From: a virus
DNA: 14,368 nt
UHGV virus genome: UHGV-0068104
Reading direction: 5' to 3' (one strand)
Shown: positions 7,659 through 9,596 of the stretch, piece after piece
How the letters are laid out: each line of letters starts with the position of its first letter
How positions within the stretch are numbered: position 1 is the first letter of the stretch
The notes under the pieces: generated by a model
The model's database searches: none
What the model was told of the DNA's origin: nothing
Seen by the model: only the letters and a program-made list of their open reading frames with translations
Program-made: the position numbers and the translations under genes

Positions 7659-9596
7659 GTGACTCTTAAACGGGCCTGTTCCCTGCTGACGGTGAAATCC
7701 TTCAGTGAGGATGAGCGGGTGATCACCGGGATTGCGTCAACGCCTTCTCCGGATCGGGATGGTGACATCCTGGAGCCGGAGGGCGCGGAGTTTGGCAGTG
7801 CGATCCCGTTTCTCTGGCAGCATGACCATTCCCGCCCGGTGGGGCAGTGTACGGTGCGCCGGGTCAGCGAAGGGCTGGAAATCACGGCAACACTGGTGAA
7901 GCCCGTACCGGATATGCCGTCGCAACTGGCTGCCCGGCTGGATGAGGTCTGGGCGGCCATTAAGACCGGGCTGGTCAGGGGGCTGTCCGTGGGCTTCCGT
8001 CCCCATGAATACACCTTTCTGGACGGAGGCGGACTGCATTTTCTGCGCTGGGAACTGATGGAGGTGTCTGCCGTCACCGTGCCCGCGAATGCGGAATGCA
8101 CCATCCGGACCATTAAATCTTACGACCGCCCGTTTTCTGCCGCGTCCGGCAACCGGAAACCGGTGGTGAAAATCGCATCTTCTGCCGGCGCTGCGGCACA
8201 GTCAACAACCGTTTTTCATAAGGAAAAGACCATAATGAATATTGGCGAACAGATTAAAAGTTTTGAAAACAAGCGTGCAGCGCTGGCAGCCTCCCTTGAG
8301 GAGGTCATGACCAAAGCCGCAGAGGAAGGGCGCACGCTGGATGTGGAGGAGGAAGAGCATTACGACAACACCGCAGCGGAAATCCGTCAGGTGGATGCGC
8401 ACCTGAAGCGCCTGCGTGAACTGGAAGCCGGTAAGGCCGCCACGGCGCAGCCGGTGAAACAGGCCGGTAATGGTGATGTGGTGACGGTGGCTTCTGCGCC
8501 GGTGATCCGTGTGGAGCAGAAACTGGATAAGGGGATTGGTTTCGCACGTTTTGCCAAATCACTGGCTGCGGCTAAAGGTGTCCGCTCTGAAGCCCTGGAA
8601 GTGGCCCGTCGTCAGTATCCGGATGACAGTCGTCTGCATCATGTCCTGAAATCGGCAGTGGGCGCGGGGACCACCACGGATCCGCAGTGGGCAGGCAGCC
8701 TGTCTGAATATCAGGAATACGCACAGGACTTTATTGATTACCTGCGTCCTCAGACCATTATCGGGCGATTTGGTCAGGGCGGGATCCCTGCACTTCGTCA
8801 GGTGCCGTTCAATATCCGTGTGCACGCCCAGGTGTCCGGCGGTGCTGCCGGCTGGGTGGGTGAGGGTAAGGCAAAACCCCTGACGAAGTTTGATTTTGAA
8901 TCCATCACCTTCAGTCATGCGAAGGTGTCGGCCATTGCGGTACTGACGGAAGAATTGATCCGTTTTTCCAGTCCGGCTGCTGATGCACTGGTCCGTAATG
9001 CGCTGGCGGAAGCGGTGGTGGCGCGTCTGGACACGGACTTTGTGGACCCGAAAAAAGCCGCAGTGGCAGATGTCTCCCCGGCGTCCATCACCCATGATGT
9101 GAAGGGCACGGCATCAACCGGTAACCCGGATGCGGATGCAGAGGCTGCGTTTGGACAGTTTGTGGCAGCAAACCTGCAGCCCACCGGTGCGGTCTGGCTG
9201 ATGTCCAGCACCAATGCCCTGGCACTGTCCATGCGTAAAAATGCGCTGGGTCAGAAAGAATACCCGGACATGACCCTGCTGGGTGGCTCCTTCCAGGGGC
9301 TGCCGGTGATTGTCTCCCAGTACGTGGGTGACCAGCTGGTGCTGGTGAATGCCCCGGATATTTATCTGGCGGATGACGGCGGCGTGGCAGTGGATATGTC
9401 CCGCGAGGCATCACTGGAAATGCAGTCTGAGCCGACCGGCGACAGTACCACGCCGTCCCCGGTGGAGCTGGTTTCCATGTTCCAGACAGGCAGCGTGGCC
9501 ATCCGTGCGGAGCGCTGGATCAACTGGCGTCGTCGCCGTACCGCGGCGGTGGCGGTGATCACCGGAGTGAACTACGGCAGTGCGTCCGGCGGCTGA
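7659..9596 (+). CDS. Prohead protease (HK97 family) fused in frame to major capsid protein (with scaffold-like coiled-coil delta region)
   Basis: 645-aa single ORF, GTG start 5 nt after AGGAGG. Residues ~1-170 show protease pattern (GIASTPSPDRDGDIL...WQHD...GLSVGFRP...EVSAVTVPANAECTI); residues ~193-290 are coiled-coil-like (MNIGEQIKSFENKRAALAASLEEVM...); the remainder has HK97-fold capsid character. Internal in-frame ATG at 8235 with AAGGAAAAG upstream. Confidence 0.85.
   Translation: MTLKRACSLLTVKSFSEDERVITGIASTPSPDRDGDILEPEGAEFGSAIPFLWQHDHSRPVGQCTVRRVSEGLEITATLVKPVPDMPSQLAARLDEVWAAIKTGLVRGLSVGFRPHEYTFLDGGGLHFLRWELMEVSAVTVPANAECTIRTIKSYDRPFSAASGNRKPVVKIASSAGAAAQSTTVFHKEKTIMNIGEQIKSFENKRAALAASLEEVMTKAAEEGRTLDVEEEEHYDNTAAEIRQVDAHLKRLRELEAGKAATAQPVKQAGNGDVVTVASAPVIRVEQKLDKGIGFARFAKSLAAAKGVRSEALEVARRQYPDDSRLHHVLKSAVGAGTTTDPQWAGSLSEYQEYAQDFIDYLRPQTIIGRFGQGGIPALRQVPFNIRVHAQVSGGAAGWVGEGKAKPLTKFDFESITFSHAKVSAIAVLTEELIRFSSPAADALVRNALAEAVVARLDTDFVDPKKAAVADVSPASITHDVKGTASTGNPDADAEAAFGQFVAANLQPTGAVWLMSSTNALALSMRKNALGQKEYPDMTLLGGSFQGLPVIVSQYVGDQLVLVNAPDIYLADDGGVAVDMSREASLEMQSEPTGDSTTPSPVELVSMFQTGSVAIRAERWINWRRRRTAAVAVITGVNYGSASGG

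Follow-up and report, generated by a model that had tools for sequence, protein, structure and literature searches.

The window analysed here is a stretch of 14,368 nucleotides from a virus (UHGV virus genome UHGV-0068104), in which a prohead protease and a major capsid protein are encoded by one continuous open reading frame (ORF; 7659..9596; GTG start, 645 codons plus stop). The gene is embedded in the order HNH, terS, terL, protease/capsid, small ORF, portal and adaptor genes; the fusion gene and the signals within and around it that are described below all lie on the plus strand. At the junction of the two parts an in-frame ATG preceded by a Shine-Dalgarno (SD)-like motif can be observed, and comparison with related genes suggests that this ATG is a conserved internal translation start. 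The DNA is 96–99% identical to the head gene of BP-4795, 2851, YYZ-2008, 1717, WGPS6 and phi330, which are long-tailed Shiga toxin (Stx)-converting and related lambdoid phages. The gene can be regarded as functional, since phi330, a siphophage with a head of about 55 nm that shares 98.8% identity in this region, forms plaques. It is found in 1255 of 5426 complete Escherichia coli genomes, often in several copies, and in 93 phage records; the existing depositor annotation reads 'putative major head protein/prohead protease'.

A first-pass annotation of the window, made from the letters alone, had described the 645-codon ORF as an HK97-type protease followed by a coiled-coil, scaffold-like segment and a capsid fold. 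This architecture is confirmed by Pfam, PHROG 617 and AlphaFold2. The domain boundaries, for which a profile search had been proposed, are set by matches of Peptidase_S78 (PF04586) to residues 48–152 (E 2.4e-8) and of Phage_capsid (PF05065) to residues 386–635 (E 4e-14); E-values and folding energies are throughout computed, not measured. The PHROG 617 profile ('major head protein', profile length 626) covers residues 1–639 with an E-value of 1e-261, and therefore the entire fusion belongs to an established family. In an AlphaFold2 model built on a 49-sequence alignment (mean predicted local distance difference test score (pLDDT) 82.8), the S78 (HK97-type) prohead serine protease domain comprises residues ~20–155 (7716..8123) with a pLDDT above 90. 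His55 (LWQHD) and Ser110 (GLSxGF) are invariant in alignments A1 and A3, and we take these residues to be a candidate catalytic pair equivalent to that of HK97 gp4. The protease is followed by a disordered linker (residues 156–191; 8124..8231; pLDDT below 50), which in alignments of relatives is the most variable and most indel-rich part of the protein and which holds the internal ribosome-binding site in its last codons. Within this otherwise variable linker a semi-conserved PGASG or AGATA motif, also present in relatives, is located about 15–25 residues before the internal methionine (window ~8170–8200, residues 172–182) and may represent a protease self-cleavage or targeting site.

Downstream of the linker, two long helices (residues 195–222 and 229–262; 8241..8444; pLDDT about 95) resemble the delta domain of HK97 gp5, and by this likeness they could act as a built-in scaffold. 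A second disordered segment (residues 266–282; 8454..8504; pLDDT below 50) is a candidate region for the maturation cleavage that would remove the delta domain. The remainder of the chain (residues 293–645; 8535..9593) is assigned to the HK97-fold major capsid domain by Pfam PF05065, AlphaFold2 and Foldseek, with the capsids of Bxb1, HK97 and D3 as the closest solved structures (Foldseek, E 1e-14 to 1e-10).

The family is large. A representative library at 50% identity contains 12,576 matching proteins at E ≤ 0.001 and 1,196 at E ≤ 1e-30, and among the best 150 matches almost every one is fused and about 630–680 residues long. By tblastn, the protein of Salmonella phage FSL SP-016 is 77.6% identical, and ORF003 of PAJU2 48.2% identical over residues 1–642. 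The fusion itself is already known and was first described in PAJU2, a cultured Pseudomonas phage, whose protein is named a 'prohead protease fused capsid protein' (UniProt 'capsid polyprotein'). Further examples have been reported from MD8-like phages, Nocturne116, Arthrobacter clusters AM/AU/AN and Rhodococcus RRH1.

The in-frame ATG at 8235–8237 encodes Met193, given that (8235−7659)/3 = 192, and in the AlphaFold2 model this residue is situated exactly at the boundary between linker and first helix. It is preceded by the SD-like sequence AAGGAAAAG (8220..8228, codons for K-E-K), the GGA of which is spaced 10 nt from the ATG; both elements, on which the first-pass annotation had built its proposal of an internal start, are present. 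Translation from this ATG would produce a nested, protease-less ORF of 453 residues that consists of delta domain and capsid domain (8235..9596). Judged by the window alone, this site is unremarkable, and its significance comes from the comparison with relatives. The fusion ORF contains ten in-frame ATGs. With a binding energy of −6.2 kcal/mol the internal SD-like sequence ranks 82nd among 635 in-frame positions, and Met217 is preceded by a stronger motif, which is too closely spaced and is not conserved as an SD signal in relatives. SD strength within the single sequence was thus insufficient as evidence for the internal start. The only single-sequence feature that stands out is the open, AT-rich context. 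The 20 nt on either side of 8235 fold at −2.3 kcal/mol compared to a gene median of −10.2, the local GC content is 0.33 versus 0.60 in the gene, and the junction lies at the 4th percentile for RNA structure within the gene. A pattern scan restricted to sigma-70-like sites, which leaves other promoter types possible, detected no such promoter between 7400 and 9900. An internal promoter as in herpesvirus UL26.5 is therefore unsupported, and internal translation initiation is the likely route to a shorter product.

For the comparison, 188 related loci were collected from genomes, metagenomes and viral contigs, and a 12-sequence alignment (A3) was used. The ORF is continuously fused in 181 of the 188 loci, as it is in the 1255 E. 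coli genomes and the 93 phage records, which excludes a sequencing-error frameshift that hides two separate genes, the outcome that the first-pass annotation had named as a refutation. Removal of pairs with more than 85% identity left 88 fused loci, of which 84 entered a gene-wide scan and 82 a count of junction codons. These relatives reach down to about 40% identity and derive from Enterobacterales, Pseudomonas, Burkholderiales, alpha-proteobacteria and metagenomes. Each sequence was anchored on the conserved glutamate of the 'IxEQI' motif at the start of the first helix, and a start codon is located 4–7 codons upstream of this anchor in every alignable sequence. In about 88% of the 84 relatives an AAGGA or GGAGG motif precedes the junction start codon by 5–10 nt. 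The scan, which scored a start codon together with an SD (binding energy of −5 or below) within seven codons upstream of the anchor, was run for every gene position. At the junction the score is 0.88–0.89, compared to a maximum of 0.46 elsewhere and a median of 0.04. The second-best position, Met588, owes its 0.46 to the conserved peptide REASLEM, which happens to encode GAGGC. By this measure, the junction is a unique outlier of the gene.

Of the 82 relatives, 76 have ATG and 6 have GTG at the junction; no other codon occurs there, and valine, where it replaces the methionine, always has the codon GTG. At six other conserved methionines of the protein, substitutions lead to non-start codons (for Q, L, I, T and A). 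The peptides encoded by the SD region vary (KG, KEK, PEEG, PKEG, QEA, KEA, LEG, REG), while the nucleotide motif AAGGA/GGAGG stays. In Enterobacterales the motif reads AAGGAA, with GGA as the glycine codon (AAA-GGA) in the loci shown, whereas most soil and freshwater relatives carry GAGGAGGG, AAGGAGGG or CAGGAGGC with binding energies of −10 to −12 kcal/mol. The median SD binding energy amounts to −7.3 kcal/mol at the junction versus −2.4 gene-wide. Even in a member of the E. coli clade with several linker substitutions (L211), 'cataaggaaaag' and the ATG are unchanged. When synonymous codons were resampled in the seven codons upstream of the junction, a codon bias toward the SD motif was found (mean z = −1.0, Fisher P = 0.004), compared to z-values between −0.12 and +0.55 (P ≥ 0.69) at six control sites. 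Moreover, 43% of the loci have the junction in the least-structured decile of the respective gene and 51% in the lowest-GC decile.

Relatives in which protease and capsid protein are encoded separately were assigned only where a stop codon or frameshift was seen in the DNA. They include Snodgrassella prophages (L026, L029), an Acidovorax locus (L025), two metagenome lineages (L196/L199 and L209/L210) and the cultured phages Burkholderia vB_FUBS1, Moraxella Mcat5 and Stenotrophomonas SOVA965. In every one of them the capsid gene begins at the homologous methionine and has an SD of its own, with N-termini such as MTIEEQI, MNLQEQI, MKTLAEQL, MKTYAEQI and MTIAEKI. Apart from the sister pair L196/L199, the five unfused capsid proteins that were compared are 29–48% identical to each other, yet three unfused lineages are 54–73% identical to fused ones, as exemplified by Acidovorax (unfused) with 73% identity to Candidimonas (fused). 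Since unfused members are far apart and at the same time close to fused ones, at least four independent fusion or fission events have to be assumed, and the capsid start was kept in place through all of them. The start thus appears universal in the family, fused or not, as would be expected if it is used everywhere.

The representative library also contains 'stand-alone' capsid proteins that start at the junction methionine (P0200, P0229, P0251, P0257, P0263). These were left uncounted as unfused cases, as some of them may be internal-start gene calls or truncated contigs. In the DNA, most viral-contig relatives of P0251 are in fact fused, so that the internal start is at times chosen by gene-calling programs and the annotation of the family is inconsistent.

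Fusions outside the close relatives show the same arrangement. In PAJU2, CAGGAGGG is located 7 nt before an ATG at Met197, the junction of the fusion. The very distant fusion ORF18 of Lactococcus phage Nocturne116 (L218, 7804–9354) carries AAAGGAAA 8 nt before the ATG of Met145; the surrounding sequence is free of structure, and the site falls precisely where the protease part gives way to a helical segment. Nocturne116 is a single example, but a suggestive one, and internal starts may be general to protease-capsid fusions.

Taken together, these comparisons make it quite probable that the gene consists of two nested, 3'-coterminal genes in one frame, which encode protease-delta-capsid and delta-capsid proteins that co-assemble. 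Ribosomes starting at GTG 7659 would synthesize the 645-residue protease-linker-delta-capsid protein, and those recruited by the internal ribosome-binding site to ATG 8235 the 453-residue delta-capsid protein without protease. As both products share the delta helices and the HK97-fold body, they are expected to co-assemble in the same capsomers. The S78 protease would thereby enter the procapsid with the full-length copies, held by a flexible tether of about 36 residues. After assembly, the protease would cut off the linker and delta domains of both forms as well as itself, to leave the mature capsid protein. What we infer in this scheme comprises the in-vivo use of the internal site, co-assembly, the positions of the cleavage sites and the product ratio. 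Of the earlier proposal, the part that concerns two products from an internal start is strongly supported by the conserved start codon, the SD and the homologous starts in unfused relatives.

Several observations weigh against two nested products. The support for initiation at 8235 is entirely comparative, and the sampling of relatives is skewed toward fused genes because fused queries were used. The published mass spectrometry of phi330 virions presents no peptide map for the fusion protein. The Enterobacterales motif (AAGGA, −5.6 to −6.2 kcal/mol) is only moderate and weaker than the 5' SD. The purely synonymous part of the SD signal is modest, as much of the signal comes from the amino acids chosen (E-G, K-E). 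In addition, ribosomes reading through from the 5' start could disturb internal initiation.

A reading with a single product would assume that only the 645-residue polyprotein is made, that a protease is attached to each capsid subunit until maturation, that autoproteolysis frees the capsid protein and that the internal SD and ATG are left over from an ancestral separate capsid gene. It agrees with the published view of PAJU2 and the MD8-like phages, in which the proteins are simply fused and autocatalytically cleaved, and by our own volume estimate 415 extra domains of 21 kDa could fit inside a T=7 procapsid; in the window by itself, the internal SD is also not exceptional. A leftover would decay, yet ATG or GTG is retained in 82 of 82 and the SD in about 88% of lineages down to about 40% identity, within a hypervariable, indel-rich linker, and with both a synonymous codon bias and valine replacements that are GTG only. 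We consider it improbable that the full-length polyprotein is the sole product. Even less credence, very little in fact, can be given to a role of junction motif and methionine in the protein or in elongation, either as a self-cleavage site or as an SD-like pause that allows the protease to fold. The exact placement of the motif at the domain boundary and the G/E-rich peptides ahead of the methionine in most members would fit such a role. However, it is the nucleotide motif that is conserved and not the peptide (KG, KEK, PEEG, QEA, LEG, TG and others), the spacing to the start codon is within the range for initiation, and replacement of the methionine by valine only, always as GTG, is the signature of a start codon. 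Furthermore, the site is the real capsid start in unfused relatives, where neither cleavage nor pausing is of any relevance.

For two nested products, the sequence is compatible with a wide range of ratios between the two forms. The full-length product has the SD AGGAGG (7648..7653; binding energy to the anti-SD −10.3 kcal/mol), 5 nt from GTG 7659. This SD is shared by the E. coli clade, all of which also has GTG as start codon, while other genera have ATG at the homologous codon. In a crude thermodynamic model of initiation, the internal:5' ratio of the window ranges from 0.2 to 15 depending on the mRNA folding term: it is about 0.2 if only SD, spacing and start codon are considered and about 15 if local folding is included. 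Across the family, the same crude model rates the internal site at least equal to the 5' site in 66–83% of the loci. The low copy number of the full-length form and the abundance of the internal product, which the first-pass annotation had also put forward, are thus not established, the 5' site combining a stronger SD with a GTG start. It is conceivable, but on the whole unlikely, that both starts are used with the ratio reversed or near equal, which would make the full-length form a major species in the E. coli clade. The stronger 5' SD (−10.3 versus −6.2 kcal/mol for the internal one) and the modelled ratio of about 0.2 point in this direction. On the other side stand the GTG at the 5' start across the clade, the equal or greater strength of the internal site in most loci and the window ratio of about 15 with folding, together with the fact that the nested systems of lambda, herpes simplex virus (HSV) and HFTV1 all make the short form in excess.

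As a tentative extension of the scheme with two products, the protease dose per capsid might be fixed by two initiation sites that compete on one mRNA, with the tethered protease as a genuine shell subunit. If this holds true, the dose would not depend on how much transcript is present, and small mutations could tune it, for instance in start-codon identity (GTG in the E. coli clade), in SD strength or through gain and loss of a stop codon in the linker, which would also explain why lineages switch freely between the fused and unfused states. Such a way of packaging an enzyme has so far not been demonstrated structurally in any tailed phage, and under this scheme the main capsid isoform would be missing from thousands of prophage annotations.

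Nested in-frame protease and scaffold genes are known from lambda C/Nu3, in which the internal start has its own ribosome-binding site. Lambda C/Nu3, Mu I/Z and HFTV1 gp17/gp17.5 share with the gene described here a protease-first long ORF and an internal in-frame start for a 3'-coterminal assembly protein, and in this group, too, the shared C-terminal part brings the protease into the procapsid. However, what they make from the internal start is a free scaffold, next to a separate capsid gene, whereas here the short product would be the capsid protein itself. Because the short ORF (8235–9596) contains the HK97-fold capsid domain, it does not encode a free scaffolding protein and represents a structural variant of the nested pair, in which the protease is therefore covalently part of a shell subunit. 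The proteases also differ, lambda C being of the S49-like type and the present one of the S78 type. For HFTV1 gp17/gp17.5, the nested genes are backed by ribosome profiling (Ribo-seq) (bioRxiv 10.64898/2026.09.13.751334).

The UL26/UL26.5 genes of HSV-1 and the capsid maturation module of OsHV-1 likewise combine a protease-scaffold long form with an in-frame, 3'-coterminal short form; the short form is abundant and both forms co-assemble. In herpesviruses, unlike in the gene analysed here, the short form is made from a transcript of its own with its own promoter, and the capsid protein is separate. HK97 gp4/gp5 corresponds to the present protein in the S78-type protease, in the N-terminal helical delta domain that replaces a separate scaffold, and in the HK97 fold. 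There, two separate genes are present and the protease is targeted by its own C-terminal tail, whereas here the protease frame continues without a stop codon into the capsid part. PAJU2 ORF003 is a true homologue, 48% identical over its full length, with the same architecture and a strong SD and ATG at the junction, although in the literature covered it is read as a single, autocatalytically cleaved polyprotein and an internal start is not mentioned. P2 gpO also unites protease and assembly domain in one polypeptide and has been reported as a single, full-length, self-cleaving product; in contrast to the present gene, it lacks a nested gene, and the capsid protein is not part of it.

What appears to be new here is the conserved internal start in a protease-capsid fusion; the fusion and nested protease/scaffold genes are both known. 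In the literature searched, no internal start is described for any protease-capsid fusion, although the original description of PAJU2 was not covered and may hold an earlier account. Fusions of this kind (Stx siphophages, PAJU2, MD8-like phages, Arthrobacter AM/AU/AN, RRH1, Nocturne116) have been seen as an unexplained oddity and have so far been taken for simple polyproteins that cleave themselves. With a conserved internal start, there is a testable account of how a limited number of proteases could enter a shell in which most subunits lack the protease. Such a start would extend the nested-gene logic of lambda and the herpesviruses to a scaffold that is built into the capsid protein, as in HK97. 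The gene, which about one quarter of complete E. coli genomes contain, Shiga-toxin phages included, is annotated without the putative 453-residue isoform, and proteomics must tell the two precursors apart. In addition, a capsid subunit with tethered cargo could serve as a natural template for enzyme encapsulation in HK97-type shells.

Outside of the coding region, a terminator-like hairpin (GAACCGC-TGCG-GCGGTTT plus T-run; 7620..7646), detected by pattern scan and folding, is located directly upstream of the 5' ribosome-binding site, and an equivalent T-run followed by GGAGG lies ahead of the gene in relatives. The GTG at 7659 is overlapped by a minimal ATG-TGA start-stop at 7657–7662. Just past the stop codon, a stable hairpin (9611..9632; −23.1 kcal/mol, z = −2.2) is situated between an AGGAGG (9605–9610) and the ATG of the next ORF (9641). 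If formed, it would bring the AGGAGG to within about 8 nt of this ATG. Candidate roles of the hairpin are mRNA stability or the positioning of the SD near the next start. The layout resembles the split ribosome-binding sites reported for some T4 genes.

The ORF that begins there (9641–9862, 73 residues) is small, conserved and belongs to PHROG 829 (function unknown); it directly follows the capsid gene and overlaps the portal start. In the distant relatives L022, L024, L025 and L030, a small ORF is likewise found directly downstream of the capsid gene, with N-termini that are alike among themselves. The portal is normally encoded ahead of the protease and capsid genes. The order terL, protease/capsid, small ORF and portal in the window (5934–11172) is thus unusual, and the same order is present in Burkholderia vB_FUBS1 and Moraxella Mcat5. 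The portal ORF (9808–11172), which encodes a complete Phage_portal domain, is overlapped by an ORF of 299 residues (11169–12068) with tandem repeats of about 54 residues (DDVRPMLEQMVKEAVSHIPVPRDGRDYDPDVLQ...); the BP-4795 homologue of this repeat ORF is 162 residues longer, which corresponds to three more repeats. PHROG 2271 (859 residues) covers both the portal and the repeat ORF, and the Prokaryotic Genome Annotation Pipeline (PGAP) treats the two as one 'frameshifted' portal in E. coli genomes, so that this pair could be another case of fused and unfused genes or of recoding.

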